Below the pieces are notes generated by a model. The model saw only the letters and a list, made by a program, of their open reading frames with translations. It was not told the origin of the DNA and did no database searches. A DNA stretch of 64,000 nucleotides from an uncultured Actinomycetes bacterium (GTDB lineage Bacteria > Actinomycetota > Thermoleophilia > UBA2241). This document shows, piece after piece, positions 6,356 to 59,906 of this stretch. The first letter of the stretch is position 1; every line of letters begins with the position of its first letter. The DNA lies in the NCBI GenBank assembly GCA_963755025.1, contig CAVWIH010000033.1:64001-128000 (forward strand), in the 5' to 3' direction. A program made the position numbers and the translations under genes.

Positions 6356-6796
6356 ATGCAGCGCTCGGTGCTTTTGGGGGAATTCGATTTCACGCTCGAC
6401 GCCAAGAATCGCGTCGCGATCCCCGCACGCCTGCGGGCCGCCTTTGCCGAAGGCGTCTTTCTCACCCGGGGCTTCGATCGCTGCCTGGCCGCCTATCCGC
6501 CCGAACAGTGGGACGCCTTCGTCGCCGAGCAGACCCAAGACCTGCCGGCGATGAGCGAGAAGGGCAGAGAGGTCAGGCGCTTCATCTTCGCCGCGGGCAC
6601 CAGCGACGTGCTCGACCGTCAGGGGCGCATCACAGTCCCGGCGAACCTGCTTTCGTTCGCCGCGGTCTCGAAAGAGGTCACCATCATCGGCGCCGGTGAC
6701 CACATCGAGATCTGGGACCGTGAGGCGTGGGCGAAGTATCGCAAGCAGATGGAGGAGGGGGCCGATGCTGCCGCAGACCAACTTTCACGTCAGTGA
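6356..6796 (+). CDS. mraZ: Transcriptional regulator MraZ
   Basis: GEFDFTLDAKNRVAIPARLR and LDRQGRITVP repeats, IEIWD; first gene of the dcw cluster. Confidence 0.95.
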   Translation: MQRSVLLGEFDFTLDAKNRVAIPARLRAAFAEGVFLTRGFDRCLAAYPPEQWDAFVAEQTQDLPAMSEKGREVRRFIFAAGTSDVLDRQGRITVPANLLSFAAVSKEVTIIGAGDHIEIWDREAWAKYRKQMEEGADAAADQLSRQ

Positions 6797-6803
6797 GTAC
6801 GAG

Positions 6804-15698: not shown

Positions 15699-17301
15699 GC
15701 GGCCGCGTGCCCGGGACAAGCAACGAGCCCCAAAGCCCGCACTGGCTCGAGCCGGCGCCCGAGCGCCGCCGCGCCGCCGGGTCGTCTGAGCGCCGCGCCG
15801 CGCCGCGCGACCAGGCGAGCGAACGCGCTGCCTCGCGCGCAACCTCCGCCGAGCGCCGCGCCACGACCGACTCGGCTCGCGAGCGCCGCGCCGCGACCGA
15901 CTCCGCCGCCGAACGCCGCAGCGCCGAGCGCCGCAGCGCCGCGGCTGAGACGCCGGCTGAGCGCCGCGCCGCCGAGCGCCGCGCCGCCGAGCGCCGCGCC
16001 GGGCAGCGCCGCGCCTCCGCGACCGAAGAGCGCTCGCGCTCGGCGCGCGAACCGGCCGATGCGGGGCGCGCCGTCGCCGCCGCCGAGCGGCGCAGCGCAG
16101 CTCGCCGCCGCGCCGCCGTTCCGGGCCTCACCGACCGCGCCGTGCTGCTCACCACGACCTGCCTGCTGCTGCTCTTCGGCCTCGTCATGGCCTACAGCGC
16201 CTCGACCGCCAAGGCCTACTTCGCGTACGGCTCGAGCTGGTACCTGATCGAACGCCAGGCGTTCTTCGCCGTGCTGGGCGTGATCGCCATGATCGTGCTC
16301 GCGCGCGTCGACTACGTGGTCTGGCGGCGCGTCGCCACGCCGCTCTGGGTCTTCGCCCTGCTCAGCCTGCTCGTCGTGCTCGTGCCGGGCATCGGCACCG
16401 AGGTCAACGGCGCGCGCCGCTGGATCATCGTGGCCGGCTTCTCGTACTCGCCGAGCGAGCTCGCCAAGCTCGCCTGCGTCATGCTCGTCGCCGGCCTCGT
16501 CATCAAGCGTCCGGGCGAGATCGCTCACCGCCGGCGGCTTCGTGCGCACCCTCGCTCTGGGCATAGGGCCGGCGGCGGTGCTGATCATGGCCGAACCCGA
16601 CATGGGCACCACCATCATCCTGGTGCTGGCCGTGGTCGCGGTCGTCGTGGCGGCCGGGGCCCGCGTGCGCCACCTGGTCACGGCTCGGCTCGCTGGCGGT
16701 GGCCGCGATCGCCCTCGCCATCGTGGTCGAGCCCTACCGCATGCAGCGCCTGACCTCGTTCGTGAACCCCTGGAAGGACCCGCGCGGCGCCGGCATGCAG
16801 ACCGTGCAGTCGCTCATCTCGATCGCCTCGGGCCACCTGTTCGGCGTGGGTCTGGGCAACTCCATCCAGAAGTTCGGCTTTCTGCCGGAACAGACCACCG
16901 ACTCCATCACAGGTATCATCGGCGAGGAGCTCGGCCTGGTCGGGCTGCTCGTGCTGATCGCCCTGTACGTGGCGCTCGTGTGGACCATCTTCCGCATAGC
17001 GCTGCGCAGCCAGGAGCCCTACGGCAAGCTGCTCGCCGCCGGCATCGGCAGCGCCATCGGCGTGCAGGCCGCCGTCAACATCGGCGCCGCGCTCGGCGTG
17101 CTGCCGCTCACCGGCGTGCCCCTGCCGCTCGTCTCGTTCGGGGGCACCAGTCTCGTCGTCGTCTTAGCGGGCGTCGGCATCGTGGCCAACATCGCAAGCA
17201 ACCGCAGGAGTTACATCGTTGCCAGCACTGAACGACATTCGCGTCCTCGTGGCGGCGGGAGGGACGGGGGGGCATCTCACCCCGGCTCTCGCGGTCGCTG
17301 A
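15695..17301 (+). CDS. ftsW: SEDS peptidoglycan polymerase FtsW with a long charged N-terminal extension (frameshifts near 16524 and 16685)
   Basis: GLVMAYSAS, NGARRWI, PSELAK, EPDMGT, LPEQTTD, GEELG and TGVPLPLVSFGGTS motifs. Confidence 0.92.
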
Positions 17302-19830: not shown

Positions 19831-21017
19831 GCGAGAGCGGCGCACGCCGGCGGCACCCCGTCCTGACCGCTGTGCTGGTCGTGCTCATCGTCGCCGTGCC
19901 GCTGGGCGTCTTCGTCTGGGGGCGCACGTCGGGCACGTTCCGCGTGCGCCACATCGTCTTGAGCGGCGCCCGCCCGGCGCACGACAAGGCCCTCGACGGG
20001 GCCCTGCGGCGCAGCTTCCTGGGCTCGAACCTCTTCCTCGTCACCACCGGCCGCGTGCGCGCCGCGCTCTCGGGCTTTCCGTTCGTGGCCCGCGTGTCGG
20101 TCAATCGCGACTTTCCCGGCACGCTGCGCGTGCACATGAGCGAGTACGTGCCGGCCGCCCTGCTGTCGAGCGGCGGCAACTGGTACGTCGTCTCCAAAGA
20201 GGGCAGGGTGCTGGCCGTGGCCGTCGCCGCCCAGCCCAAGGGCGCGGCGGCGCCGCGCGCCGGCGCCTCGCCGACCACGGGCACGTCGCCCACCACGACC
20301 GCGAGCGGCTCGCCCAGCACGACCACGAGCGGCTCGCCCAGCTCCACGACGAGCGGTTCGCCGTCGACGAGCACGAGCACGCAGCCCTCAGCGAACTCGA
20401 GCACCGCGCCCACGACCAGCGCCTCGACCGGCGCCGACGCCAGCGGCTCGAACGGCACGGCGTCGCCCTCGCCCTCGTCGACCGCCATCCCGCGCCCGGC
20501 CGCCGACGTCAAGCTGCCGCGGGGCACGCGGCGCCTGCCGGCGATCGTCTCCGCGACGCCGCTCACCGTCGGGCGCCACGGTCGCCGACCCCCACGTGCG
20601 CGCCGCGCTGCTCGTGCTCGGCGCCTTGCCGACGGCGCTGCGGCGTCAGGTCCTGGGCGCCGCCGCGACCGACGCCAGCATCCGTATCTACACGTCCGGC
20701 GGCCTCACCGTCGAGTTCGGCGGGACCGCCGGACTGACCGCCAAGATGATCGCCCTCAAGGCCGTGCTGGGGCGCTACAGCGCGCGCGGCGTGGCCTGCA
20801 CGTTCGTCGACGTCTCGGTGCCCGACCGACCCCTGGCGGCGCCCGTACTGTCGAGCGGCGCCACGCAGTCGGTCGGCGGCGGTGCCACGCAGTCGGGCGG
20901 CGGCGCGACGCAGTCCGGCGGCACGACCCAGTCCGGCGGGGGCACAACGCCGACCCCGGGCGCTTCGCCGGCACGACCTCGCCCTCGCCGTCGGGCGGCT
21001 CGACAAGTACTCCCTGA
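19827..21017 (+). CDS. ftsQ: Cell division protein FtsQ/DivIB with Ser/Thr-rich insertions (frameshift near 20573; end approximate)
   Basis: TM plus POTRA (FPFVARVSVNRDFPGTLRVHMSEYVP); shifted frame gives VEFG...K...DVSVPDRP; lies before ftsZ. Confidence 0.82.
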   Translation: MSESGARRRHPVLTAVLVVLIVAVPLGVFVWGRTSGTFRVRHIVLSGARPAHDKALDGALRRSFLGSNLFLVTTGRVRAALSGFPFVARVSVNRDFPGTLRVHMSEYVPAALLSSGGNWYVVSKEGRVLAVAVAAQPKGAAAPRAGASPTTGTSPTTTASGSPSTTTSGSPSSTTSGSPSTSTSTQPSANSSTAPTTSASTGADASGSNGTASPSPSSTAIPRPAADVKLPRGTRRLPAIVSATPLTVGRHGRRPPRARRAARARRLADGAAASGPGRRRDRRQHPYLHVRRPHRRVRRDRRTDRQDDRPQGRAGALQRARRGLHVRRRLGARPTPGGARTVERRHAVGRRRCHAVGRRRDAVRRHDPVRRGHNADPGRFAGTTSPSPSGGSTSTP

Positions 21018-21034
21018 GAGAGGCTCCGAAGTGT

Positions 21035-21064
21035 TTGACACTCCGCGCAAGCGGCCCATATGCT
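21035..21064 (+). promoter_or_regulatory. ftsZ promoter
   Basis: TTGACA-N18-TATGCT. Confidence 0.7.
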
Positions 21065-21206
21065 ACGAAGGTGGCTCGGTCTCAGTTTGGCGTTCAGGGT
21101 TTGTGAGCAAGCAAAATCCCAGCAAACGAGGCGTTTCTTGAGCTATGCTCCACACGTTTTCAACAAGTCTCAGGGGCCGCTCCATGGTGGTCGCCGGCAA
21201 GACATA

Positions 21207-21235
21207 AGCCTCGACTTCAACAGGAGGGTTAGGGC
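21207..21235. promoter_or_regulatory. FtsR-like operator upstream of ftsZ
   Basis: AGCCT-N13-AGGGT (21207-21229) plus an overlapping copy offset by 6 nt; resembles the C. glutamicum FtsR site ACCCT-N13-AGGGT. Confidence 0.6.
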
Positions 21236-21238
21236 CAC

Positions 21239-22332
21239 ATGATCGAGTCTTCAGGCAACTACCTGGCGGTCATCAAGGTCGTCGGAATCGGCGGCGGCGG
21301 CATCAACGCCGTCAATCGCATGGTCGAAGCGGGCTCAAGGGCGTCGAGTTCATCGCGATCAACACCGACGCGCAGGCCTTGCTGATGAGCGACGCCGACG
21401 TCAAGCTCGACATCGGCCGCGAGCTCACCAGGGGCCTCGGCGCCGGCGCCAACCCGGACGTCGGCTGCAGGCCGCCGCCGAGGAGCACGCGAGGAGATCG
21501 AGGAGGCGCTCAAGGGCGCCGACATGGTCTTCGTCACCGCGGGCGAGGGCGGCGGCACCGGCACCGGCGCGGCGCCCGTGGTCGCCGAGCTCGCCAGCGA
21601 GCTCGGCGCGCTGACCGTCGGCGTGGTGACGCGGCCCGTTCGGGTTCGAGGGCAAGCGCCGCGCCCGGCAGGCCGAAGACGGGCATCCGCGAGCTGCGCG
21701 AGAAGGTCGACACGCTGATCGTCATCCCCAACGACCGGCTGCTGCAGGTCGTCGAGCGGCGCACGTCGATCCTCGACGCCTTCAAGGCCGCCGACGACGT
21801 GCTGCGCCAGGGCGTGCAGGGCATCACCGACCTGATCACCATCCCCGGCCTGATCAACCTCGACTTCGCCGACGTGCGCACGGTCATGTACGACGCCGGC
21901 TCGGCGCTGATGGGCATCGGCGTGGCCGGCGGCGAGAACCGCGCCGTCGAGGCCGCCAAGGTGGCGATCAGCTCGCCGCTGCTCGAAGCCAGCGTCGACG
22001 GCGCCATGGGCGTCCTGCTGTACATCACGGGCGGCGCCGACCTCGGCCTGTTCGAGATCAACGAGGCCGCCGAGATCGTCTCGAGCGCCGCCGACGCCGA
22101 CGCCAACATCATCTTCGGCGCCGTCATCGACGACGCGCTCGGCGACGAGGTGCGCGTCACGGTCATCGCCACCGGCTTCGACGGTCCGCGCAGCGCCGAG
22201 TCGCGGCCCGTACAGAAGGCGCAGACGCCCGCGCCGGCGCCGGCGGCAGGCGTCTTCGGCGCCGAGCCGCGGCCGTCGTTCGAGATCAGCGACGACGTGC
22301 TCGACATTCCCAGCTTCCTCAAGGACCACTAA
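21239..22332 (+). CDS. ftsZ: Cell division protein FtsZ (several frameshifts in the 5' half)
   Basis: [32 protein letters not shown] and C-terminal DVLDIPSFL. Confidence 0.97.
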
Positions 22333-22506: not shown

Positions 22507-24162
22507 ATGAAACATCGCAAGCAACGAAATATTCTCATCCTGCTCATCGTCGCGGCCCTGGTCGTGGTGTCGGGCTTCTACATCTTTCCGTTCGGCAAGA
22601 AGACGCACCTCGGGCTCGACCTCCAGGGCGGCCTCGAGATCGTCTACAAGGCGGCGCTGCTGAACGGCGACAAGCCGTCGCGCGCCCAGCTCGACCAGAC
22701 GATCAGCATCATCAACCGCCGCGTCAACGGCCTCGGCGTGAGCCGAGGCGGCGGTGCAGATCCAGGGTACCGACCAGATCTCCGTGGCGCTGCCCGGCAT
22801 CAAGAACGTCGACCAGGCCGTGCGCACCGTCGGCCAGACCGCCCAGCTGCAGTTCTTCAACGACGCCAAGCAGCGCGTGTCCGGCCCCGCCGACAGCCTC
22901 GCCGCGGCCGTAAAGACGGCCAAGACCTCGCCGCTGGTCGCCGCTGACCGGCCGGCCGACAGGCCGAGCTCCCCAAGCTGGCCAAGGGTCGAGACGTCGA
23001 CCGAAGCTACCTGACGGTGATCGCGCAGAAGGGCATGTACGGCAACAACACCGCGCCGCTCTACTTCATCTACACCCTGCCGCCGGCCATGACCGGCAGC
23101 GCCATCCACAACTCGACCCAGCGTTACGACCAGCGCAACCGCCCCGACGTGCTCATCAACTTCACGAGCGCGGGCGGCAAGCAGTTCGGTAACGTCACAC
23201 GCGAGCTGGCCACCACCGGCCAGATCACGGGCGTGTCGCAGACCTTCGCCATCGTGCTCGACAACCAGATGGAGTCCGACCCGTCGGTCGACTACACCGA
23301 GTACCCCGACGGCATCCAGGGCACGAGCGCCGAGATCACCGGCAGCTTCACCATCGGGCAGGCCAAAGACCTCGCCCTGGTGATCAACACCGGCGCCCTG
23401 CCCGTGCAGCTCAACCAGATCGAAAGCCAGGAAGTCTCGGCCACCCTGGGCAAGGACTCGTTGCACGAAGCGCTCATCGCCGGCATCGTCGGCCTTGGCC
23501 TCATCCTGCTCTACATGCTCATCTACTACCGCTTCCTGGGCCTCGTGGCCGACATCGCGCTGGTCATCTACGGCATCCTGCTGCTCGGCCTGTTCAACGC
23601 CGTGCACGTCACGCTCACGCTGCCGGGCATCGCCGGCATGATCCTCACGATCGGCGTGGCCGCCGACGCCAACGTGGTCATCTTCGAACGCATCAAAGAA
23701 GAGGTGCGCCACGGCCGCACGGTACGCTCGGCGGTCAACTCGGGCTACGCCCGCGGCTTTCGCACCATCCTCGACGCCAACGTCCTGACCCTGCTCACGG
23801 CGGCGGTGATCTTCGAGTTCGCGACGGCGCAGCCCAAGGGATTCGCCTTCACCCTCATGCTCGGTGTGCTGGTCAGCATGTTCACCGCCGTGGTCGCCAC
23901 GCGCGCCATGCTGGGCCTGCTGTCCGACTTCACCTTCTTCAACCGCGCCGAGTTCATGGGTGTGCACGCCTCCGACATCGAGGCAGCCGTCGACGACGGC
24001 GGCACCGGGCGCCGCTCACGGCCGCGGCCGGCCACCGGCAACGGCCGCCCCGGCGCCGTGCTGCGCGCCGGCGACACCGCCGGCATCACGCGCGGCGGCG
24101 ACACGCCGAGCCGCCCGGCCGCCAAGCGCCGCCCGTCGACCGCCCGAAAGAAGAAGAAATAG
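22507..24162 (+). CDS. secD: Protein translocase subunit SecD (frameshifts at about 22745-23015)
   Basis: LGLDLQGG, RVNGLGVSE-like, GALPV, TLPGIAG...DANVVIFERIKEE and KGFAFTL motifs. Confidence 0.94.
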
Positions 24163-25402: not shown

Positions 25403-25547
25403 CGGTGCCGACAACGTGATCGACCGGTGGTCGCCTGACTCGCCGGTAGCTGGCGATCGCCGCACCACCAGCCATCTTCAGTTTCGTCTTCGCCGCACCC
25501 GAGCCGTCGGGCGTGGCGGCCAGGTGATCGACCGCAGGGGGGACCAC

Positions 25548-26048
25548 GTGAGCGCTCAAGCCAAGGACCGCCCCGAAACGGCCGGCCATGCGGTCACGCT
25601 CAAGGGTGGCGGGGGAGGGCTGCGGCTGAGCTTCGTGGGCGCCGGCGAGGTGCCGGTCCTGGCCCTGAGCGGCGAGTTCGACCTCGACAACGTGCCCGAG
25701 ATCGAGCGCTTTCTGCGGCGCCACCTGGGGCCCTTCTTCTTCAAGACCCGCGACCTGGTGCTCGACCTCGCCCTGGTCGAGATGGTCGACTCGGCCTTTG
25801 TGGGGCTTGTGGTGTCGCTCGTCGTGCGGCTGCACGAGCACCGCAGAGAGCTGCTCATCACGCGGCCGGCGGGCTACGTGCGGCGCACCATCGCGCTGGT
25901 GGGCCTGCCCAACGTGGTGCCGGTCTACGAGACTCTCGACGCCGCCATAGGGGCGTTGGCCATGGGTACGCCGCTCATCCCGCCGCCCTTCGACCTGGCG
26001 CCGTGCGCGCCGGTCATGCGCCCGGTGCGGGCGTCGGCGCGCTCGTAG
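25548..26048 (+). CDS. STAS-domain protein (anti-sigma antagonist-like)
   Basis: LSGEFDL...LVLDLALVEMVDSAFVG...VRRTIALVGL; GTG after GGGGGA. Confidence 0.82.
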   Translation: MSAQAKDRPETAGHAVTLKGGGGGLRLSFVGAGEVPVLALSGEFDLDNVPEIERFLRRHLGPFFFKTRDLVLDLALVEMVDSAFVGLVVSLVVRLHEHRRELLITRPAGYVRRTIALVGLPNVVPVYETLDAAIGALAMGTPLIPPPFDLAPCAPVMRPVRASARS

Positions 26049-26544: not shown

Positions 26545-26904
26545 CTAGACGGTCGCGCTTTCGAGGGCCTTTTCGCGAGTGGGATAGATGCCGAAGATCC
26601 GGTCGAGTCCCGTGATCTCGAAGATCCGCGTGATGTTCTCGTCGTGGCAGACGATGTCGAGGGTGCCGTTCTGCGGCCGCACGCGCTTGGCGCCACTCAC
26701 CAGGACGCCGAGCGCCGTGGAGTCGATGAAGGTGACGCCGGCCAGATCGACGACGATGTGTTTGGCGCCTTCGTCGATGCTCTGGATCATGACCTCTTTG
26801 AACTGGGGCGCCGAGTAGATGTCGACTTCGCCCTGAAGTGCGACCACGGCTACGTCATCGCCAACGCGTACCAGTTCGACGCCGAATTGTGGCCTGTCGT
26901 CCAT
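26545..26904 (-). CDS. Anti-sigma factor antagonist (RsbV/BldG-like STAS)
   Basis: GEVDIYSAP, VDLAGVTFIDSTALGVL and IFEITGLD motifs. Confidence 0.92.
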   Translation of the reverse strand: MDDRPQFGVELVRVGDDVAVVALQGEVDIYSAPQFKEVMIQSIDEGAKHIVVDLAGVTFIDSTALGVLVSGAKRVRPQNGTLDIVCHDENITRIFEITGLDRIFGIYPTREKALESATV

Positions 26905-27211: not shown

Positions 27212-27676
27212 ATGGGTCTTGCGGCGATCGTGTCGGCGCTCACCACCAAAGCGCCATCCGGAGCGGTGCTGGCGCTGGTGGTCAGCCTGGTAGCCGCCGC
27301 CATGCTCACCGCCGGCTGGCGCCTTGCGGTGGCCCGGCGCTACACGGCGCACCGTGTCGTGCAGACCGCGGCGGTCGCGCTCAGCAGCGCGATCATCGTC
27401 ACCTGGATGATCAGGTCGTTCGTGCGCTATGTCGCGCCCCAGATCCCGGCCAGGCTGAGTCAGCGCGCCTACGCGGTGGCCACCGTGCACGCCGCTGTGG
27501 GCGTGGTCGCCCTCGTGCTCGGCCTGTACGTCGTTCTCGGCGCCTTCAAGGTCCTGCCGGCGCGCCTGAGCTTCACGCGCTTCAAGCCCGTCATGCGCAG
27601 CTCGTACGCGCTCTACCTGCTCGGCGCGCTCACCGGCGTGGTGCTCTACGCCGTGGCCTACGCCGGCCTGGGCTAG
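27212..27676 (+). CDS. DUF420-like four-TM membrane protein
   Basis: GWRLAVARRYTAHR, H..VG and LY...TGVVLY pattern; four hydrophobic helices. Confidence 0.65.
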   Translation: MGLAAIVSALTTKAPSGAVLALVVSLVAAAMLTAGWRLAVARRYTAHRVVQTAAVALSSAIIVTWMIRSFVRYVAPQIPARLSQRAYAVATVHAAVGVVALVLGLYVVLGAFKVLPARLSFTRFKPVMRSSYALYLLGALTGVVLYAVAYAGLG

Positions 27677-27714
27677 CCGCGGCGATCCGCGGCCGGGCGA
27701 TCTGCGACCGGGCG

Positions 27715-29149
27715 ATGGACGGGCTCGTCGGGCAGCTCCGTTACGACCGGCGCCTGCTGGCGCTCAGCGTCGCGTTGCAGCTCGCGCTCGGCCTGGTGCT
27801 CGGCCACTCCTACGACACGCGTCTCTTCATGGCGACCGGCTTTCTCGCCGGCACCGGCCGCGACCCGTACGCGGCGCTCGACCTCGTGCGCGTGTTCCAC
27901 CACGCCGGCTTCAGCCACATCACCTCGGTGGGGTATCCGCCGCCCTGGCCGCTGCTCGCCGGCCTGATCTACCGCGTGAGCTACGCGCCGACCCACGACC
28001 TGCTGCTCTACAATCTGGCCCTCAAGCTGCCGGTGATCGCCGCCAACGTCGGTCTCGCCTACCTGGTCGCGGCCATCCTGCGCGAGCGCGGCGCCTCGTC
28101 GGCCGTCGCCCGGCACGCCTGGGCGCTGCTGCTCCTGAACCCCTTCCTCGTGTACGTGGGGGCGGCCTGGGGCGAGATCGACGCCATCGTCGCCCTGCTC
28201 GCCCTGGCGGCCCTGTGGCTGCTCTACCGCGGTCGCGGTGACCTGTCGGCCGTGCTGCTGGCCCTGGCCTTCTGCGTGAAACCCATCGCCCTGCCGCTCC
28301 TGCCCGCCGCCCTGCTCTACCTGGCGTCGCGCTCGCTGCCGCGGGCGCTGCGTTACGCCGGCGTGTGGCTGGGCGCCGCGCTCCTGTTGTACGTCGCGCC
28401 GTTCTTTGCCTTCGGCTGGGACCGGACGCCGTTCACCCAGAGCCTGAACGTCCACTTCGTGCACCAGGGGGCGCTCTCGTTCATGACAGTCGTCAGGCTC
28501 TTTCGCGACCCCCTGCTCATGCAGGGCCGGTGGTGGTTGCTGGGCCTGGCCTGGGCGCCGGCCCTGGTGCTCGGCGTCGTCGTGCTCTGGGCGCGGCGCG
28601 GTCGGCCGGCGCCCGACGGCGCGGCGCAGTTCGCGCCCGACGGCGGCGCGCCGCCGGCGCGCCGCGCGGGCGGCGTCACCTCGCCGGCGCGCCGCGCGGG
28701 CAGCGTCACCCCGCCGCCGCCCGCATGATGACTTCGACGAGCTGCTCACGATGGCCACGGGGCTCACCCTGCTCGTCTTCCTGACGCGCACCTGGGTCGC
28801 CGAGCCCAACATCGTGCTGATCGTCCCCCTGGTGGCTCTGCTGACCGCCACGGGCGCCCTCGACCGCCGCGCCCTGACGGCCGTCTGGGCCCTGCCCCTG
28901 GCGTTCACGGTGTTCAACGCCTCGCCGCTGCAGCTGCTGTGGGTCTCGGCGCCGGGCCTCATGGCGCGGCTGCTGGCCGACGTCGGCCGCTACGGCCAGG
29001 CCACCCTGCTGGCGCGCGCCGCCCTGGTGGTCGCCTGGCAGGTCGCGGGCTGGTGGATCGTGGTCGTCTGCTTGCGGCGGCGCACCGTGGGCGCAGCCCG
29101 GCGCTCGAGCCCGCTCGGCGAGCGGCCGGTCGCGGAGGTGCGGTCGTGA
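27715..29149 (+). CDS. GT-C fold membrane glycosyltransferase (GT87/PIG-M-like; frameshift near 28720)
   Basis: HSYD, GYPPPW, KLP.I.A, LLNP and WGEID motifs; many TM helices continuing in the 28751-29149 frame. Confidence 0.75.
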
Positions 29150-30126
29150 AGGTCGAGGTCGTGAAGGTCGAGGTCGCGTTGCCGGAGGGGCTCGCCCTTA
29201 CCATCGCCGACGGCGCCGCGGACGCTCCCGATGCCGGCGCCGATCGCCCCGACGGCATCCCGCTCGCCCACCGCTCCGCCCATGACGTCGGCGCTCACCC
29301 CTCCGCCCACCATGCCGGCGCTCACCGCTTCGCCCGCCGCGCCGCCGCCGCGCCGGCCTACCCGACGCGGCGCCTGCAGAAGGGGCTGCTGCTCAGCGCC
29401 GACGGCGCGCAGCTCGCCGAAGAGGGCGTGGGCTTTGGCGTGCCCATCCTCAAGCGCGGCCTCACCACCGTCTTTCCGGGCGGCGTCGCGCTGGCCGAGC
29501 GGCCGGTCGCCGGCGGCCGCGAGGTGATGGCCGTTTACGCCATGGACCTGGTCGAGCGGCTCGCCACCGCCGACGGCGCCGCCGTCGGCTCGCCGGCGTT
29601 GTACGTCGCCAAGAACTCGCTGGCGGTGCTCCACCGCCGCGCGCCCGTGCTGCGCGGCCCTCTGACCGCCGCCTCGAACGCCCTGCGTCGCTCGCTCGGC
29701 TGGGAGACGACCTTCACGGCCGAACCCTCGACTATGACCCTCAAGGCGACCTATACGATCCTTGAGGGTTGCGAAGGGGCGCGCGTCGGCGTGGCGGTCG
29801 AGCTCCCCGGCCTGCCCGACGACATCACCGAGGTGGTCCTCATGAACGAGCTCGGCGCGCGGCGCTTCGACCGCTACGTCGACAGCGACGGCGCCGACCT
29901 GCGGGGCCCGGCTATCGGCACCTGGGACCTGGTCACCGCCGACCAGGCGTCGTTCGTCTGCGACTCACAGCGCGCGGCGTTCTCGCTCGCGCAGGCGGCC
30001 GGCGCCACGCTGTACCGGGGCCGCGAGCTGATCGGTACGCGCCTGGCCTGGGCGGGCTTCGGCTACTCGCTGTCTCCGTCTCTGGGCGCTTTTGCCTACG
30101 AGCTCACGATCGCGCGGACCTCGTGA
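29146..30126 (+). CDS. Hypothetical protein coupled to the glycosyltransferase and radical SAM genes
   Basis: GTGA overlaps at both ends; good codon usage; no family recognised. Confidence 0.8.
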   Translation: MKVEVVKVEVALPEGLALTIADGAADAPDAGADRPDGIPLAHRSAHDVGAHPSAHHAGAHRFARRAAAAPAYPTRRLQKGLLLSADGAQLAEEGVGFGVPILKRGLTTVFPGGVALAERPVAGGREVMAVYAMDLVERLATADGAAVGSPALYVAKNSLAVLHRRAPVLRGPLTAASNALRRSLGWETTFTAEPSTMTLKATYTILEGCEGARVGVAVELPGLPDDITEVVLMNELGARRFDRYVDSDGADLRGPAIGTWDLVTADQASFVCDSQRAAFSLAQAAGATLYRGRELIGTRLAWAGFGYSLSPSLGAFAYELTIARTS

Positions 30127-31540
30127 CGACAGTGCTCCTCATCTACCCGTTCTTCCTGGGGCGGCTCGACCGCTCGCGCTTTCGCTTTCCGCCGCTCGGG
30201 CCGGCCTACGTGGCCGCCGCGCTGCGCGCCGCCGGCCACGACGTCGACCTGCTCGACTGCACCTTCCTGAGCCGCGACGAGGCGCTCGGCCGGGCGCGGG
30301 CCTCGGGGGCGCGAGTCGTCGGCATCTACGCCATGGCTACGCTCGGCCCCGAGAGCCGCTGGTTCGCCGAGCGCCTGCGCGGGCGCTGCGACCTGCTGGT
30401 GGCCGGCGGCCCGCTGCCGACCTGCGAGCCCCTCGAGTTCGTGCAGCACTTCGACGCCGTCGTGCGCGGCGAGGGCGAGCAGGCCATGTGCGAGCTGGTT
30501 GCCGCCCACGAGGCGGGCGCCGACATCGGCGCCGTCGCCGGCGTCGTCACCCGAGCGACGGCGCCCGGCGCCGGCGCGGCGGGCCGGGCCGCCGCCGGTG
30601 GGCCGGCGCGTCCCGCGGTCGCCGCCGCCGCGGCGCCGTCGCGCCGCCCCGTCCCTTCGCCACCGACCTCGACGCGCTTGCCTTTCCGGCCCGCGACCTG
30701 CTGCCCAACGCGGCCTACATCGCCCACGGCCGCAAGAAGGACGGCCGCGCCGTCACCACGGTGATGAGCACGCGCGGCTGTCCCTTTGCCTGCGAGTTCT
30801 GCAGCAACGTGGTGTTCGGTCGCTCCTACCGCGAGCGCTCGCCGGGCAACGTGGTCGACGAGATCGAAGAGGCGCTCGCCCTGGGCTACGACCGCATCTC
30901 CTTTGCCGACGACGTCTTCACCCTCGACCGCCGCCGGGTGGCCGCCGTGTGCGACGAGATCGCGCGACGCGGCCTGCGCTTCACCTGGGAGTGCCTGGGG
31001 CGTGTCGACACGCTCGACGGCGAGACCGCACGGCGCATGCGGCAGGCCGGCTGCGACACCATCTTCTTCGGCATCGAGTCGGGCAACGACGCCGTGCTGC
31101 GCTTGATGGACAAGCAGATCACGACCGCCCAGGCGCGCGCCGCCGTCGAGGCCGCCCACGAGGCAGGGCTGCGGGTGGGCGCCTTCTTCATCGTCTACTA
31201 CCCCGGCGAGAGCGACGACACGGTGCTCGACACGCTGCGCTTCGCCGGCTCGCTGCCGCTCGACTACCTGGGCCTGACGATGCCCTACCCGCTGCCCGGC
31301 ACGGCGCTCACGGAGCGGCTCGCCGGCCGCACGCGGCGCGAGTGGCGCCAGCACGGCGGCCTGCTGACCGGCCACGCCCTCACCTTCGACGCCGACGTCT
31401 CGGCCACCAAGATGCGCGTCGCCATTCTCAAGGGGCACGTGCAGTTCGCGCTGCAGCGCCGGCTGGGGAAGAGGCTGGCGGCGCCGGCGCTGCGCGCCTT
31501 CGAGGTTCCTACCGACGCGCTCCTGCGGCGACTGCGCTGA
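30123..31540 (+). CDS. Cobalamin-dependent radical SAM protein 1 (frameshift near 30640)
   Basis: PPLGPAYVAA B12-binding N terminus, RGEGE, TRGCPFACEFC and FGIESG. Confidence 0.9.
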
Positions 31541-32873
31541 GCGCCGGCTCGAGGTCGAGACCGGGTTCCCGGCGGCGCCTGCGCCTGTTCTCGGCAAAGG
31601 CCGCGGTGGTCTCGGCGATGCGCCGCCGCAGCCAGTCGGCGTCGAACTGCGAGTGGTAGACGAAGGTCGTCTCGTTCTCTTCGTTCCAGTCGAGGCCGTC
31701 GTCGGGCCCGCCGAGGCGCCGGAAGAGCGTGGAGCCGGGCAGCGGGAAGGGCACGTTGAACGAGATCTCGTCGAGCGGCAGGGCCAGGGCCAGCGCGAAG
31801 GTCTGCTCGACCGCGGGGACGGTCTCGCCCGGGTAGCCCACGATGAAGAAGCCGGCCACCTCGATGCCGGCCTCGCGGTAGAGGCTCACGGCGCGGATGC
31901 CGTCGCCCACTGTTACCTGCTTGTTCATGAGGGCGAGCGTCGCCTGGCTGCCCGACTCGAGGCCCAGGTAGACGCGCCGGCAGCCGGCCTCCCGCATGAG
32001 GCGCACGGTGGCGCGCCTGATCCCCCGGGCGCGCGACAGGCACGACCAGGTGAGGCCGCGGCCCGCCATGCGCCGGCAGAACCCCTCGAGGTAGGCGATG
32101 TCGAGCGTGAAGGTGTCGTCGGCGATCCACAGGCCGTCGTAGCCCAGGGCGGCGATCTCGTCGACCTCGGCGAAGACCCAGTCGAGGCTGCGGCGCCGCA
32201 CGACGTTGCCGAACACCGGCTTTGAGCAGAAGTCGCAGGCGAACGGACAGCCCAGCGTGACCATGAGCGAGGTGATGGCGGCGCCGCCGGCGCGCCGCCA
32301 CACGCTCTGGTAGGCGGCGTGGTCGAAGTCGCTGCGGTCGGGCCGCGGGAACGACTCGAGGGCGGCCTCGTCGTAGTGCGTGCACGGGTTGTCGATGCGC
32401 ACGCCGTGGTTGGGGATGAACAGGCCGTCGTAGGCGGCCAGCGGCAGGTGCGCCAGGGAGTCGGGCGAGACGCGGCGAGCGAAGACGTCGCCGCAGAACT
32501 GCGGAAAGCTGAGGTCGGCCTCGCCCCGAAAGACGACGTCGAAGTGCTTGGCGAAGCGCCTGGGAAAGACGGTGGGCAGCGCGCCGCCCGCCACCAGGAG
32601 GGCGTGGGGCGCGACCTCGCGCACCATGGCGGCCACGGCGAAGGTGTTGCGCGACAGGCTGACCATCGAGGAAACGCCCACGATGTCGGGCCGGTACGCT
32701 TCGAGCTCGGCGCGCAGCGTGGCCAGATCGCTGAACGTGCAGTCGAAGACCCTGGTCTCGATGTCGCGGCCGCGCAGCTGGGCGGCCAGCGTGGCGATGC
32801 CGAGCGGCGCAAAGAGCATCTCGTTGGCCGACCTCGTGCGAACGTACGGAAAGACGAGCGCCACCCTGCCCAT
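31509..32873 (-). CDS. Cobalamin-dependent radical SAM protein 2
   Basis: APLGIATLAA, RGEAD, TLGCPFACDFC, LGLESGS and FIVGYPGET; ATG behind AAAGGAG. Confidence 0.92.
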   Translation of the reverse strand: MGRVALVFPYVRTRSANEMLFAPLGIATLAAQLRGRDIETRVFDCTFSDLATLRAELEAYRPDIVGVSSMVSLSRNTFAVAAMVREVAPHALLVAGGALPTVFPRRFAKHFDVVFRGEADLSFPQFCGDVFARRVSPDSLAHLPLAAYDGLFIPNHGVRIDNPCTHYDEAALESFPRPDRSDFDHAAYQSVWRRAGGAAITSLMVTLGCPFACDFCSKPVFGNVVRRRSLDWVFAEVDEIAALGYDGLWIADDTFTLDIAYLEGFCRRMAGRGLTWSCLSRARGIRRATVRLMREAGCRRVYLGLESGSQATLALMNKQVTVGDGIRAVSLYREAGIEVAGFFIVGYPGETVPAVEQTFALALALPLDEISFNVPFPLPGSTLFRRLGGPDDGLDWNEENETTFVYHSQFDADWLRRRIAETTAAFAENRRRRRREPGLDLEPALSAVAAGARR

Positions 32874-33023
32874 GCGGCTCCTTTGCGCGGACGACCCCTG
32901 ACCTCGGGGCTTCATACCCACGGGGCCGCTCGCGAAAGCTCGTCTCGCCGTCGCGGCCAACGGACGCGCGCTCGCAGCGGTGCCGTACACTGTGCCCGCC
33001 TGTGGGGCGACAAGGGGGCGAAC

Positions 33024-34484
33024 GTGCACGCGACAACTCGACGCAACGAAGTGCTGCTCGTCTTTCCGGGGAGGTTCAAGGCGCCCGACCCGCAGGTGCC
33101 GCTCCAGTTGCTGCACGTCGCCGGCGCCCTGCAGCGCGCCGGCTACCGGCCGCGCATCTTCGACCTGCGCCTCGCCGACTACCGCACGCTGCCGATCGGC
33201 GAGCCGGTGTTCGTCGGGCTCACCTGCATGAGCGGTCCGCAGATCCGCTACGCCCTGGAGTTCGCCGCCCGGGTGCGCGCGGAGCGGCCGCGCGTGCCCA
33301 TCGTGTGGGGCGGCGTGCACCCCACGCTGCTGCCCGAACAGACCGCCGCCAGCGCGGCGGTCGACGTGGTGGTGCGCGGCGAGGCCGAGACGGTCGTCGG
33401 CCCGCTGGCCGACCGGCTGGCCGCGGGCGCCCCGCTGGCCGACGTGCACGGCCTCACCTACGAGCTCGACGGCGCCGTGGTGAGCACGCCCGACGCCGAG
33501 CTCGCCGACCTCGACGGCATACCGGTCGAGCTGCCCTACGAGCTGCTCGACCTCGCCGGCTACCCCACGCTGCAGGCGGGTCGCGTGCACCTGCAGACCA
33601 GCCGCGGCTGCCCGAGCCGCTGCGGCTTCTGTTACAACACCGGCTTCAACAAGCGCCGCTGGCGCGGCAAGAGCCCGGAGCGCGTGGTGGCCGAGGTGCA
33701 GAGCCTGCTGCGCCGCTTTCCGCAGGTGAAGATCGTCGACCCGGTCGACGACAACTTCTTCGTCGACCGCCGCCGCGCCGAGGCGATCTGCACCGGCCTG
33801 CTCGACGGCGACGTGCGCGCCGCCTGGCGGGCGAACTGCCGCTTCGACTACCTGGCCAAGTACGACGGGGCGTTCGTGAAGCTGCTCGAGCAGGCCGGCT
33901 GCAGGGAGATCGACTTCGGCGGCGAGAGCGGCTCCGAGCGCATGCAGAGCCTGGTCTGCAAAGACGTGAGCGCCGAGCAGATCCTGCAGTCGGCGGCCAA
34001 GCTGGCCGAGTTCGCGCCCTCGATCGACCCGTTCGTCTCGTGGCTGTCGGGGCTGCCCGGCGAGACCTACGCCGACATGGAGCAGACCTTCGACCTGATG
34101 GACGCCATGGGCCGCGTCAACCCGCGCACGCAGCACTACGGCATCTTCCTGTACACGCCGTTCCCGAGCCCGCTGCTCGACTCGCTGCCGGCCACGTTTC
34201 GCCCCCCGCAGTCGCTCGAGGCCTGGGGGGCGATCGAGGTCTTCCACTTCGAGCCGCCCTGGCACACACCCGCCTACGTGCGGCGCCTGCGGGCGATCTC
34301 GGCGGTCACGCGCTACGCCTTCTATCCGCGCTCGCGCATAGACGAGCACGGCCCCGCCTTTCGCGCCGGCTACGGCGCCGTGAGCCGCGCCGCGCGCTAC
34401 CGCTGGAGCCACCGCTACTTCCGCCACCCGGTCGAGCTCGACCTGGCCAACGCCGCGGCCAAGCGGCTGCGCGGCTTTCTGTGA
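33024..34484 (+). CDS. Cobalamin-dependent radical SAM protein 3
   Basis: PLQLLHVAG, WGGVHPT, TSRGCPSRCGFC, FGGESGS and GLPGET. Confidence 0.92.
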   Translation: MHATTRRNEVLLVFPGRFKAPDPQVPLQLLHVAGALQRAGYRPRIFDLRLADYRTLPIGEPVFVGLTCMSGPQIRYALEFAARVRAERPRVPIVWGGVHPTLLPEQTAASAAVDVVVRGEAETVVGPLADRLAAGAPLADVHGLTYELDGAVVSTPDAELADLDGIPVELPYELLDLAGYPTLQAGRVHLQTSRGCPSRCGFCYNTGFNKRRWRGKSPERVVAEVQSLLRRFPQVKIVDPVDDNFFVDRRRAEAICTGLLDGDVRAAWRANCRFDYLAKYDGAFVKLLEQAGCREIDFGGESGSERMQSLVCKDVSAEQILQSAAKLAEFAPSIDPFVSWLSGLPGETYADMEQTFDLMDAMGRVNPRTQHYGIFLYTPFPSPLLDSLPATFRPPQSLEAWGAIEVFHFEPPWHTPAYVRRLRAISAVTRYAFYPRSRIDEHGPAFRAGYGAVSRAARYRWSHRYFRHPVELDLANAAAKRLRGFL

Positions 34485-34608
34485 GGGCGCAGGCACGCGC
34501 GATCTGCGCGGCGTGGCGCACCGATACGACCTCGACCATGGCCGTGGGCCGGGCCACCGGATAGCCTTGGCGGTGCGTCCGGCGTAGGTCACCCAAAAGG
34601 AGCTTCCC

Positions 34609-35076
34609 GTGCCCACCGAGCTGCGCCCCATAGGCGTCATCCACACGCCGTTTGCCGTCAAAGAAGACGCCCCCATCCAGGGCGCCTTTCACCCCGAGAA
34701 CACCGGCGTGGTCGAGGTGGCCCCCGAGTACGCCGAGGGCCTCTCCGACATCGACGGCTTCTCGCACCTGATCCTGCTCTACCAGTTCGACCGCGCGGCC
34801 CCGATCGAGATGGCGCGCCCCACGTTCCTGAGCGACGAGCCCCACGGCATCTTCGCCTGCCGCCACCCGGCACGGCCCAATGCCATCGGGCTGACCATCG
34901 TCACCCTGCTGAGCCGCGAGGGCACTGCCCTGACGTGCGGCGGCGTCGACATGCTCGACGGCACGCCGCTGCTCGACATCAAGCCCTACATCGGGCGCTT
35001 CGACTGCTTTCCCGACGCGAGCGAGGGCTGGTTCGCCGGGCGAGAGGACCGGCCCAAGCCGCCGGGCAGGGAGTAG
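34609..35076 (+). CDS. TrmO/TsaA (YaeB)-family SAM-binding methyltransferase, N-terminal domain only
   Basis: PIGVIHTPF, FSHL, GIFACRHPARPNAIGL and DMLDGTPLLDIKPY motifs. Confidence 0.9.
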   Translation: MPTELRPIGVIHTPFAVKEDAPIQGAFHPENTGVVEVAPEYAEGLSDIDGFSHLILLYQFDRAAPIEMARPTFLSDEPHGIFACRHPARPNAIGLTIVTLLSREGTALTCGGVDMLDGTPLLDIKPYIGRFDCFPDASEGWFAGREDRPKPPGRE

Positions 35077-35215: not shown

Positions 35216-35889
35216 ATGGCAGCCGACGCATATCCAAGGATTCCTGAGAGCAACTGGTGGAAACTGCGCAATCAGTTCAAGAAGACCATGCCGGCAGCGG
35301 TGACGACGCCGTACATCCGCAGCCTCTTGGGCCTGAACTCCGAAAAGGCGGCCAGTAACCTGCTCACCCCCCTTCGGCGCCTCGGACTGATCGACAAAGA
35401 CAACAAGCCGACGGCTCGAGCCAACGATTGGCGAAACGACGCCAAGTACGCTGACATCTGCAGGGACATGCTCGCTGACGTTTATCCGCAGGAACTTCGC
35501 GATTTGTACAGCGGGCCCGGCATAGACCGGCGCGCGGTCACCGGGTGGTTCGCAGACGTCGCTCGACTTGGACAGGGCGCCGCCGCCATGAACGCTCAGC
35601 TCTATGTGCTGCTCAACGAGGGCGTGCCGCGCTCAAGCGAGGGGCAGCCGAAGAAGGGGAGGTCAAGCCGAAGGCTGCGAAGGCGGCTACCGCGGTGGAG
35701 TCTGATTGGCGGAGCGCCACGTCTTCCGAGGCTCGTGAGGATGGGAGAAAGAAGCCGCTGGATCACGCGCACGAGCCGCAGGGCCCCACCGTGCACATGG
35801 ACTTCCAGATCCACATCTCTCCTGAAGCAGGTGTGGAACAAATTGACGCCATCTTCGCTTCGATGGCGAAGCACCTCTACAACAAGTAG
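35216..35889 (+). CDS. DUF5343-family protein (frameshift near 35655-35660)
   Basis: LR.LGLID.DNKPT N terminus; shifted frame gives HMDFQIHISPEAGVEQIDAIFASMAKHLY; lower GC than flanks. Confidence 0.7.
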
Positions 35890-35896
35890 GGATCGC

Positions 35897-36403
35897 ATGT
35901 TGCTCGAGGAGCTTCGCGTTCGTCTTGGTGCTCTGACGCGCGAGTTGGCCTCCGTTCCGGCCGTCACGCTGACGCGTCCGCGGCCGGTGCATAGGAAGCA
36001 GTTGAGAGACTACTTGGTGGACCGCGACCTCTTGAAGGTCGGCGAGAGGCTGTTCGCCGACGGGCACCATGCTCGTGCCGTCGAGGAGGCTTTCAAGTAT
36101 ATGAACAATCTCGTCAAGACGCGGTCGGGGCGAACGGAGCTCGATGGGGCGCAATTGATGAGGACTGCACTTAGCGCCAAGAACCCGGTTTTGAAGCTAA
36201 ATCCGGGGGCGTCCACTTCCGAGCAGGATGAGCAGCAGGGCTACATGGATATCTGTGCGGGAAGCATGACCGGAATCCGTAACCCGAGGGCTCATGAGTC
36301 CGAGTGGGAAGATTCGGAGGAGCACGCGCTCCAGCTGCTCATCTTGGCGGACCACTTGATAGGCCGCATCAAGGCCGCGACGAAGACGCCCGCGGCTCCG
36401 TAG
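35897..36403 (+). CDS. TIGR02391 (Ymh)-family protein
   Basis: LFADGHHARAVEEAFK, LDGAQLM, EQQGY and GIRNPRAH motifs; own ATG 7 nt after the DUF5343 stop. Confidence 0.85.
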   Translation: MLLEELRVRLGALTRELASVPAVTLTRPRPVHRKQLRDYLVDRDLLKVGERLFADGHHARAVEEAFKYMNNLVKTRSGRTELDGAQLMRTALSAKNPVLKLNPGASTSEQDEQQGYMDICAGSMTGIRNPRAHESEWEDSEEHALQLLILADHLIGRIKAATKTPAAP

Positions 36404-36499: not shown

Positions 36500-36575
36500 T
36501 GGTGGAGGTAAGCGGGCTCGAACCGCTGACCTTCTGGCTGCCAGCCAGACGCTCTCCCAGCTGAGCTATACCCCC
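36500..36575 (-). tRNA. tRNA-Ala(GGC)
   Basis: GGGGGTATAGCTCAGCTGGGAGAGCG...CTGGCAG loop...GGTTCGAGCCCGC-TTACCTCCACCA; G3:U70 pair, encoded CCA. Confidence 0.97.
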
Positions 36576-59830: not shown

Positions 59831-59906
59831 CCAGAAGGCCACGGGGGCGCTCCGGCAACGGCTTTTCTTGCGCTGCGAAGGGAATAGAATCGCGCGCAGC
59901 AGACCC

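Follow-up and report, generated by a model that had tools for sequence, protein, structure and literature searches.

What might a bacterium build with three B12-domain radical S-adenosylmethionine (SAM) enzymes encoded next to a membrane glycosyltransferase and a protein that matches no annotated family? The question is raised by a gene cluster from an uncultured Actinomycetes bacterium (Thermoleophilia, UBA2241), located on contig CAVWIH010000033.1 of assembly GCA_963755025.1 within a stretch of 64,000 nucleotides (positions 64,001 to 128,000), hereafter the window. Comparison with its counterparts in other genomes shows that the conserved core of the cluster consists of a GT-C glycosyltransferase (GT-C), the unannotated protein (UNK) and two of the radical SAM enzymes (rSAM1 and rSAM2), usually together with a small membrane protein of the DUF420 family. 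The cassette recurs in many uncultured bacteria of wetlands and soils, and the favoured, tentative reading is that it modifies a sugar carried by a glycolipid or glycan of the cell envelope. Only a few dozen B12-domain radical SAM enzymes, out of more than 220,000 (PMC12931638, available portion), have known reactions, and the cassette presents a coherent, widespread set of them with a fixed partner protein of a new family.

The gene cluster

The window has a G+C content of about 72%, and genes were assigned by third-position GC (GC3), not by the length of open reading frames (ORFs). The cluster comprises the following features:

27212 (ATG) or 27200 (TTG) to 27676, + strand: DUF420-like small membrane protein with 4-5 hydrophobic segments (Pfam PF04238)
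27715-29149, + strand: GT-C, GT87-like (Pfam GT87, PF09594; GC3), in two frames, 27715-28728 and then 28721/28751-29149
29146-30126, + strand: UNK, a soluble protein of 326 amino acids (aa) that matches no Pfam or NCBIfam family
30123-31540, + strand: rSAM1, B12-binding and Radical_SAM domains (PF02310, PF04055), in two frames
31509-32873, - strand: rSAM2, B12-binding and Radical_SAM domains (PF02310, PF04055)
33024-34484, + strand: rSAM3, B12-binding and Radical_SAM domains (PF02310, PF04055)
34609-35076: TrmO (NCBIfam TIGR00104; TrmO_N domain)

All of these genes had been proposed in a first-pass annotation, and all were located and checked against Pfam and NCBIfam. Its account of the junctions largely holds: GTGA start/stop overlaps join GT-C to UNK (29146-29149) and UNK to rSAM1 (30123-30126), rSAM1 and rSAM2 converge with a 32-bp overlap (31509-31540), and rSAM3 diverges from rSAM2. 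A third GTGA overlap, claimed between DUF420 and GT-C, is refuted, as DUF420 ends with a TAG at 27674-27676 and the ATG of GT-C follows after a 38-nt spacer. The statement that all three radical SAM enzymes keep a CxxxCxxC motif and an N-terminal B12-binding region stands for motif and domains, but rSAM1 is not a single ORF in the window. Among the window ORFs scanned, no nonribosomal peptide synthetase, polyketide synthase, hopanoid or precursor-peptide genes were seen, in agreement with the earlier view. An Rfam scan of the window found one tRNA only and no cobalamin or other riboswitch, and promoter and terminator scans of the window gave no signal above shuffled expectation.

A conserved cassette

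With UNK as the marker, relatives were found in 102 genome stretches, of which the best 80 served as loci: 43 from Chloroflexota, 33 from Actinomycetota (mostly Thermoleophilia), 2 from Methanotrichaceae and 1 each from Bacteroidota and Chitinivibrionales (Fibrobacterota). Many of them come from metagenome-assembled genomes (MAGs) of peat, bog and fen. Window proteins were mapped onto the loci by tblastn, and counts were taken only over loci with enough flanking sequence. The gene arrangement is conserved far beyond chance, with the same order recurring across the 80 loci and five phyla. Specifically, GT-C lies directly upstream of UNK in 74 of 77 loci, the exceptions being both archaeal loci and locus L075, while rSAM1 lies directly downstream of UNK in 71 of 71, with a gap of 0-9 bp between the two in 59 of 79. 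rSAM2 is found in 62 of 65 loci and is convergent in 61 of 65, and DUF420 is found in 50 of 60, where both its side of the cassette and its strand vary. A membrane family 2 glycosyltransferase (GT2), recognized by all-against-all clustering of ORFs, is present in 38 of 73 loci, all from Chloroflexota, where it stands directly upstream of GT-C in 38 of 42. No GT2 occurs in the window cluster, in any of the 28 Actinomycetota loci whose upstream flank spans 3 kb or more, or in the archaeal loci. Setting aside GT2, opposite-strand shadow ORFs and the rSAM3 family, which the ORF clustering did not separate from rSAM1 and rSAM2, no other family occurs in more than 16 of the 80 loci, and the genes flanking the cassette vary by lineage.

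Because the adjacency of GT-C, UNK, rSAM1 and rSAM2 recurs while the flanks vary, and because GT-C, UNK and rSAM1 are coupled by GTGA overlaps in the window, the cassette can be regarded as a functional unit centred on GT-C, UNK, rSAM1 and rSAM2, in most cases joined by DUF420. The two Methanotrichaceae (Methanothrix) loci carry just UNK and rSAM1 of the cassette, which thus form its irreducible, translationally coupled module. The first-pass annotation had treated the cluster as one unit, and its recurrence around UNK in other genomes, those of Chloroflexota and, as UNK with rSAM1, of archaea included, bears this out. The comparison also redraws its borders. As to the proposed cluster of three radical SAM genes, rSAM1 and rSAM2 belong to the core, but rSAM3 is an accessory of Actinomycetota, occurring in 15 of 58 loci, all of them from this phylum (15 of 21), either after rSAM2 or between DUF420 and GT-C. 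TrmO, which matches TIGR00104 with 125.4 bits (cut-off 93.25), had been named as a member as well; it accompanies the cassette in 1 of the 61 loci that have 6 kb or more of sequence downstream, namely in the closest relative (L036), and reflects local synteny that should not be counted in the cluster when it is annotated.

Several loci show features of their own. In one archaeal locus (L071), UNK and rSAM1 are separated by a 429-aa ORF (10792-12081) that matches nothing in Pfam or NCBIfam; in the other (L079), they overlap directly. In 12 of 80 loci, from both Chloroflexota and Actinomycetota, the cassette adjoins a gene for an FAD/NAD(P) oxidoreductase that combines Pyr_redox_2 with an AIF_C-like end (for instance L023 14891-16069, L027 4907-6475 and L075 8334-9908) and is a possible electron supplier for the radical SAM enzymes. 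The Bacteroidota locus (L014) holds a five-gene cassette beside a phage-type integrase (6644-7594, - strand) and shares 81% identity in rSAM1 with a Chloroflexota copy. Because the integrase adjoins the cassette and this rSAM1 nests inside Chloroflexota, the locus suggests a recent horizontal transfer or a mis-binned contig.

UNK and its relatives

UNK matches no Pfam or NCBIfam model, and its at least 658 homologues at E<=1e-3, typically of about 277 aa, are all unnamed or annotated as 'hypothetical'; a profile search returned 565 representatives of 50%-identity clusters. Conservation is spread along the length of the protein, with about 22 positions invariant across phyla, Glu, Arg and Trp residues among them, and the window copy carries in addition a His/Ala-rich insert encoded by a 27-bp repeat. 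UNK represents a new protein family and deserves a family model of its own for annotation. Neither UNK nor the radical SAM enzymes have hydrophobic segments, in contrast to DUF420 and GT-C.

The AlphaFold2 model of UNK (mean pLDDT 86) is a beta-sandwich in which the insert is disordered. At E<=1e-3, Foldseek matched this model only to the N-terminal sandwiches of GH129 and GH65 glycosidases, followed just above this threshold by GH101, GH97 and aldose-1-epimerases (mutarotase). A complex prediction for rSAM1 and UNK, run without controls, gave a score of 0.00, which speaks neither for nor against binding. The protein Atlas placed UNK with unnamed clusters and with DUF2264_C, a weak lead (score 0.92, 131 shared features) that is not relied on here.

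Gene fusions provide a further view of the company that UNK keeps. Four full-length, in-frame proteins join it to its neighbours: a GT-C+UNK protein of 751 aa (P0137), a GT2+UNK protein of 539 aa with 3 member sequences (P0122), a 1198-aa protein with 6 member sequences in which a GT2 is followed by an UNK-like domain (P0128), and an UNK+rSAM1 protein of 760 aa (P0126). Sugar-handling enzymes (GT-C and GT2) are thus constant companions of UNK and rSAM1, down to gene fusions. Among nine longer-than-usual UNK matches, six (P0121, P0123, P0124, P0125, P0127 and P0129) were rejected as fusions; they consist of partial neighbour pieces run together and are probable frameshift read-throughs.

The radical SAM enzymes

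Each of the three enzymes carries one CxxxCxxC motif (CPFACEFC in rSAM1, CPFACDFC in rSAM2 and CPSRCGFC in rSAM3). All exceed the gathering threshold of PF02310 (32.1), with 67.7 bits in 30123-30764 for rSAM1 and 56.4 bits each for rSAM2 and rSAM3, and that of PF04055 (29.5), with 106.5 bits in 30632-31540 for rSAM1, 75.1 for rSAM2 and 53.0 for rSAM3. With the motif and both domains present, they are assigned by sequence to the class B (B12-binding-domain) radical SAM enzymes. Their use of cobalamin is inferred from this domain alone, a related form of which AprD4 and ArsL carry without binding cobalamin (PMC12931638, available portion).

In a tree of 121 rows, rSAM1, its paralogue rSAM2 and rSAM3 form separate orthologue groups (support 91, 99 and 100, respectively). 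When the rSAM1 tree is rooted on rSAM2, the 2 archaeal sequences branch outside the 58 from bacteria (support 97); the Actinomycetota sequences form one clade (97), and the Bacteroidota copy is nested in Chloroflexota (99).

How do these enzymes relate to those with known reactions? The NCBIfam comparison covered the window proteins and the intact orthologues from L031 and L036, mostly through the best 25 of 27-34 matches. Among the matches listed, rSAM1-3 reach no curated cut-off, their best scores being 100-170 bits against cut-offs of 251-775. The families below cut-off are HpnJ, HpnR, BchE, PhpK, Sden_1168, ApyD, MgmA, the glutamine C-methyltransferase of methyl-coenzyme M reductase (MCR), AprD4, BzaD, the ladderane radical SAM family, KedN5, ArsL and TsrM-type enzymes; HpnP is not among the matches listed. 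The best-scoring of them are HpnJ, BchE, PhpK and ApyD, with HpnJ the top match of the rSAM1 of Longilinea arvoryzae KOME-1 (L031) at 169.5 bits. The suggestion that the enzymes stand outside the characterised families is thus upheld at the level of NCBIfam cut-offs. In a sequence search of the PDB, rSAM2 is nearest to AprD4 (6fd2, E 8e-20), followed by QCMT (9ccb), while rSAM3 is nearest to QCMT, with OxsB also among its matches. QCMT is the MCR glutamine C-methyltransferase (PMC12931638, available portion).

These matches invite the idea that the cassette modifies a protein or peptide, with UNK as the substrate or scaffold of the radical SAM enzymes, much as MCR is for its glutamine C-methyltransferase, or that it matures a ribosomally synthesized and post-translationally modified peptide (RiPP). 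The strict pairing of UNK and rSAM1 would fit, as would the presence of the RiPP family ApyD and the MCR glutamine C-methyltransferase among the NCBIfam matches and the rank of QCMT as nearest solved structure to rSAM3 and second nearest to rSAM2. We nevertheless consider this explanation very unlikely: UNK is a well-folded domain of 277 aa with about 22 invariant positions and not a leader-core peptide; peptidase, transporter or short-ORF partners do not recur beside the cassette, and GT-C, GT2 and DUF420 would be left unexplained.

Glycosyltransferases and DUF420

In the window, the first part of GT-C (27715-28728) matches Pfam GT87 with 38.0 bits (cut-off 25), with PIG-V and PMT_2 below their cut-offs; its C-terminal piece has no Pfam or NCBIfam match. 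GT-C as a whole has no NCBIfam match, and a PDB sequence search at E<=0.1 was empty. Structure is more informative. The AlphaFold2 model of the L036 orthologue (mean pLDDT 86, pTM 0.88) has a GT-C architecture with multiple transmembrane helices, and Foldseek aligned it with ALG6 (6snh; E 8e-6, TM-score 0.60/0.58), glycosylphosphatidylinositol (GPI)-mannosyltransferase I (9wno; 0.58/0.65) and PimE (9dm5; 0.45/0.53), and also with ArnT (5f15), Emb, oligosaccharyltransferase and PMT structures. With ALG6, GPI-mannosyltransferase I, the GT87 member PimE and ArnT, the cassette GT-C shares its fold (TM-score 0.45-0.65), a compact all-membrane build and an Asp after the first transmembrane helix; it differs from them in sequence (13-18% identity in structural alignments) and in that some of its members are fused to UNK. 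The Asp, D34 in L036 numbering, is invariant in 40 GT-C sequences and follows the first long helix (12-28); in the model, it would be catalytic and outward-facing. Because several of the nearest structures were solved with dolichyl-phosphate-glucose, dolichyl-phosphate-mannose or undecaprenyl phosphate, the donor of GT-C may, by analogy, be a polyprenyl-phosphate-sugar.

The DUF420 protein of the window scores 36.9 bits against PF04238 (cut-off 30.5). Because its Bacteroidota orthologue falls below the cut-off, with 25.8 bits, the DUF420 proteins found here seem to form a divergent branch of the family.

The Chloroflexota GT2 is a membrane protein of 516 aa that matches CelA, the cellulose synthase catalytic subunit, with 126 bits (cut-off 699), PgaC with 92 bits (cut-off 422) and Pfam GT21 with 33.9 bits; in NCBIfam, HpnI (37.8 against 310) and the undecaprenyl-phosphate transferase model (22.7 against 529) score below CelA and PgaC. 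Does the cassette then serve a synthase-dependent exopolysaccharide or sheath glycan? In such a system, the Chloroflexota GT2 would polymerize and export a beta-glycan, the radical SAM enzymes and UNK would modify the nucleotide-sugar or the nascent chain, and GT-C would add branches outside. CelA and PgaC as best matches, the position of GT2 directly upstream of GT-C and the 1198-aa protein that joins such a GT2 to an UNK-like domain point in this direction. Nevertheless, the proposal is doubtful, given that the GT2 scores lie far below both cut-offs, that GT2 is missing from the window cluster, the archaeal loci and the 28 Actinomycetota loci, and that a c-di-GMP receptor, an outer export component or other synthase partners do not recur.

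Proposed function

Taken together, the evidence leans towards the sugar rather than the hydrocarbon part of the product, as suggested by the fold of UNK, by the glycosyltransferases (GT2, GT-C) to which it is fused and by the synthase-type GT2 of Chloroflexota. In addition, the structures nearest to GT-C in fold (ALG6, GPI-mannosyltransferase I, PimE and ArnT) were solved with ligands of the lipid-phosphate-sugar type, and AprD4, the solved sequence nearest to rSAM2, acts on an aminoglycoside sugar. The reading that we favour, tentatively, is that the radical SAM enzymes tailor a lipid-linked sugar in the cytoplasm, by C-methylation or ring rearrangement, and that GT-C then uses it.

Under this model, UNK would hold a lipid-carried sugar at the cytoplasmic face of the membrane. 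As the carrier, the model allows a polyprenyl-phosphate sugar or a glycosyl-lipid produced by a GT2, which would be the cassette's own in Chloroflexota and, in Actinomycetota, presumably one encoded at another place in the genome. rSAM1 and rSAM2, joined by rSAM3 in Actinomycetota, would apply 5'-deoxyadenosyl radical chemistry to unactivated sugar carbons. This may be a cobalamin-mediated C-methylation of the kind that MoeK5 and GenK carry out on sugar substrates; the alternative is a rearrangement by radicals, a ring contraction or a dehydration, for which HpnJ and Cds (proposed) and AprD4 (shown) offer precedents. At the outer face, the ALG6/PimE-like GT-C would then transfer the modified sugar to a lipid or glycan acceptor, with the small multi-helix DUF420 protein as a candidate helper, for example in translocation.

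Known systems provide partial parallels. For hexoses bound to a lipid, conversion into a carbocycle is described for HpnI/HpnK/HpnJ and for Cds (PMC13459092, available portion). In the hopanoid case, a GT2 (HpnI) puts the hexose on the lipid and a B12-domain radical SAM enzyme (HpnJ) remodels the ring, and HpnJ is the top or near-top NCBIfam match of rSAM1-3, yet with 103-170 bits against a cut-off of 578. The hpn module is also built differently: HpnI is a poor match for the Chloroflexota GT2, and the module has no UNK, GT-C, DUF420 or multiple radical SAM enzymes, of which the cassette has two to three. An HpnK-like deacetylase or an hpn/shc gene was not found among the recurrent neighbour families or the window ORFs scanned. 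Cds, the calditol synthase of Sulfolobus, is a radical SAM enzyme that turns the hexose head group of a glycerol dialkyl glycerol tetraether (GDGT) into a carbocycle (PMC13459092, available portion). Compared by description and not by sequence, Cds is a single enzyme for which no UNK, GT-C or DUF420 partners are described, and its hosts are thermoacidophiles, whereas those of the cassette are anaerobes of peat or soil. AprD4, the radical SAM diol dehydratase of apramycin C3'-deoxygenation, resembles rSAM2 in its sugar substrate, as proposed here, and its N-terminal Rossmann-like domain; its NCBIfam scores reach only 80-105 bits against 500, and the aminoglycoside pathway is absent here.

Closest in chemistry to the first option are MoeK5, GenK/GenD1 and Fms7, which carry out cobalamin-dependent methylation of unactivated sugar carbons (PMC12931638; bioRxiv 10.1101/2023.10.20.563219; available portions). 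These enzymes belong to antibiotic clusters of single genera, and no models for them are among the NCBIfam matches listed. MoeK5 acts within a lipid-linked pathway. Gtr systems combine a GtrA flippase, a GtrB GT2 and a GtrC GT-C, and do so without radical SAM enzymes or UNK. The cassette is Gtr-like in that it combines a small multi-helix protein with a GT-C and, in Chloroflexota, a GT2; it differs in that the small protein is DUF420 and not GtrA, the GT2 is synthase-like and not GtrB-like, and the window cluster has no GT2 at all.

Several observations weigh against the tailoring of a lipid-linked sugar. The fold matches of UNK are weak (TM-score 0.2-0.4, about 10% identity) and beta-sandwiches are common, so that sugar binding by UNK, as suggested by its model, is a lead and not a result. 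The fusions are unnamed metagenome predictions, and those of GT-C with UNK and of UNK with rSAM1 could have been made by indels, as the partners are normally adjacent. The likeness to HpnJ or AprD4 is nothing specific, since all radical SAM scores in NCBIfam lie 3-6-fold under the cut-offs. The Chloroflexota GT2 is processive-synthase-like (CelA/PgaC) and not of the GtrB/DPM1 type, GT2 is missing from the Actinomycetota, Bacteroidota and Fibrobacterota loci, and the archaeal loci lack any glycosyltransferase; therefore, UNK and rSAM1 can work without GT-C. No flippase family was recognized, and no GtrA Pfam match was found on the cassette proteins scanned. The role of DUF420 as a helper is a guess, and the family is elsewhere linked to cytochrome oxidase biogenesis. 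Some enzymes with a 'B12' domain, such as AprD4, bind no cobalamin (PMC12931638, available portion). Lastly, the assignment of substrate and chemistry draws on genes and structural models throughout.

The obvious alternative is chemistry on hydrocarbon chains, in which the radical SAM enzymes would methylate, cyclize or cross-link the alkyl or isoprenoid chains of a lipid, as HpnP/HpnR, GrsA/B and the methylase of H-shaped GDGTs (H-GDGTs) do, while GT-C would decorate the head group. Class B radical SAM enzymes are the known agents of such reactions (PMC13459092; bioRxiv 10.1101/2023.10.20.563219; available portions), the NCBIfam matches below cut-off include HpnR and the ladderane 'lipid biosynthesis' family, and the cassette occurs in bacteria and archaea, many of them represented by MAGs from peat, bog and fen. 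Such habitats are a known source of orphan methylated membrane lipids. We see a small though real chance that this explanation is correct. The scores for HpnR and the ladderane family are far below cut-off, and Tes/Mss-like, squalene-hopene cyclase, fatty-acid and isoprenoid genes neither recur beside the cassette nor appear among the window ORFs scanned. Moreover, UNK, as the obligate partner, is a soluble protein with a likeness to sugar-binding folds, and it occurs in fusions with glycosyltransferases. A link to the H-GDGT bridge synthase/methylase was considered and rejected; the available text of the preprint mentions no Chloroflexi, Actinobacteria or Methanothrix.

A bolder version of the tailoring model holds that UNK and rSAM1 constitute an unrecognized two-protein enzyme that builds, on a lipid carrier, a sugar that is C-methylated or carbocyclic (cyclitol- or calditol-like), from which GT-C, DUF420, rSAM2 and rSAM3 or GT2 make a new class of bacterial envelope glycolipid or glycan. 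This enzyme would be common to Anaerolineae, Thermoleophilia and relatives, Methanothrix and, according to the Atlas listing, Bathyarchaeota. As a joint proposal it is speculative, and we give it a low probability. There is likewise a limited chance that the true function lies outside the four readings considered, namely lipid-linked sugar tailoring, hydrocarbon-chain chemistry, exopolysaccharide synthesis and protein modification.

The components come from known superfamilies (class B radical SAM, GT-C/GT87, DUF420 and GT2); in the literature searched, neither their combination nor the UNK family nor the product has been described. A literature search found no published description of the cassette, related searches gave general reviews and papers only, and the earlier remark that no characterised pathway has this composition thus agrees with the searchable literature. 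A review of lipid-modifying radical SAM enzymes covers Tes, Mss, Gms, GrsA/B, Gmm, Cds, HpnH/J/P/R, Jaw5 and the ladderane enzymes, and no such cassette appears in its available portion (PMC13459092). The hosts, Anaerolineae, Thermoleophilia and Methanothrix, are abundant in peat, soils and digesters and poorly cultured. A new envelope glycoconjugate, if confirmed, would bear on membrane adaptation, on orphan lipid and sugar biomarkers and on the B12 demand of communities, and the product of the putative two-protein enzyme, if that version is right, could be the source of an unassigned biomarker in peat and wetland sediments. One cultured host is at hand among the Chloroflexota loci, Longilinea arvoryzae KOME-1, whose locus (L031) encodes GT2, GT-C, UNK, rSAM1, rSAM2 and DUF420, and makes the chemistry directly testable.

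Frame breaks in the window copy

Is the window copy itself intact? By GC3 and translations, the frame of GT-C ends at 28728, and its last approximately 140 residues, rich in transmembrane segments, lie in another frame (28721/28751-29149). In rSAM1, 30123-~30560 gives the frame of the B12 domain and ~30632-31540 that of the radical SAM domain. Both breaks fall in repeats: the first inside a 30-bp tandem-repeat linker (x2.5, 28651-28724), the second between ~30560 and ~30640 in a GC-rich repeat of irregular 11-19-bp units (30565-30648). The insert of UNK is encoded by a comparable 27-bp repeat (x3.1, 29265-29348). These GC-rich repeats encode variable low-complexity linkers in GT-C, UNK and rSAM1, and the linker lengths differ between the window and two close relatives, L036 and L001, which are colinear with it at 87-90% nucleotide identity. 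In these relatives, GT-C is one ORF of 465 aa and rSAM1 is also one ORF.

Across the loci, 64 of 76 GT-C genes are unbroken; of the remaining 12, 2 are frameshifted, 7 have an internal stop that depends on an estimated start, 2 sit at contig edges and 1 is partial. For rSAM1 the figure is 61 of 79, and the remaining 18 consist of 10 with frameshifts, 6 that extend beyond the contig, 1 with an internal stop and 1 partial copy. The 10 frameshifted rSAM1 genes are mostly from MAGs of one long-contig series. Housekeeping genes of the window are affected in the same way: ftsZ (20900-22332) alternates between two frames with at least 3 shifts, and ftsI (8878-9967), murE (10933-11541), ftsW (16699-17301) and secD (23017-24162) are fragmentary too. 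The syntenic locus L005 encodes intact FtsZ (361 aa) and SecD (507 aa).

Because FtsZ and other housekeeping genes are equally fragmented and the relatives have intact ORFs, the breaks in GT-C and rSAM1 are most likely assembly indels and not a loss of function, so that the 'split' genes should probably be annotated as assembly artefacts. The contrary view, that the window holds a decaying, non-functional cluster with real pseudogenising mutations in slippage-prone repeats, concerns a question separate from the four functional readings. It accounts for the fact that GT-C and rSAM1 are both out of frame and both broken within tandem repeats, but it is improbable. The same fragmentation affects the essential FtsZ, FtsI, FtsW, SecD and MurE, and like breaks in rSAM1 cluster in one MAG series. 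Furthermore, GC3 stays at about 0.9-0.98 in the coding frame on both sides of each break and takes values of 0.81-0.93 only in intervals that span the frame switches.

Neighbouring genes

Two genes with STAS domains (anti-sigma-factor-antagonist-like; 25416-26048, + strand, and 26545-26904, - strand) lie between secF and the cassette. They are kept in L036 and L001 by nucleotide colinearity and are elsewhere not part of the cassette. Further downstream, a second GT-C of the PMT family (59868-61625, + strand) is followed by a convergent gene with an LPG_synthase_TM domain (61635-62561, - strand), both positionally unrelated to the cassette. Directly after TrmO, the window carries a 1.4-kb insertion relative to L036 (35077-36498) that adjoins a tRNA-Ala(GGC) gene (36500-36575, - strand) and contains a gene of low GC3 (35216-36403) whose product has DUF5343 and Hypoth_Ymh/TIGR02391 domains; the insertion resembles a small islet that integrated between trmO and leuS.

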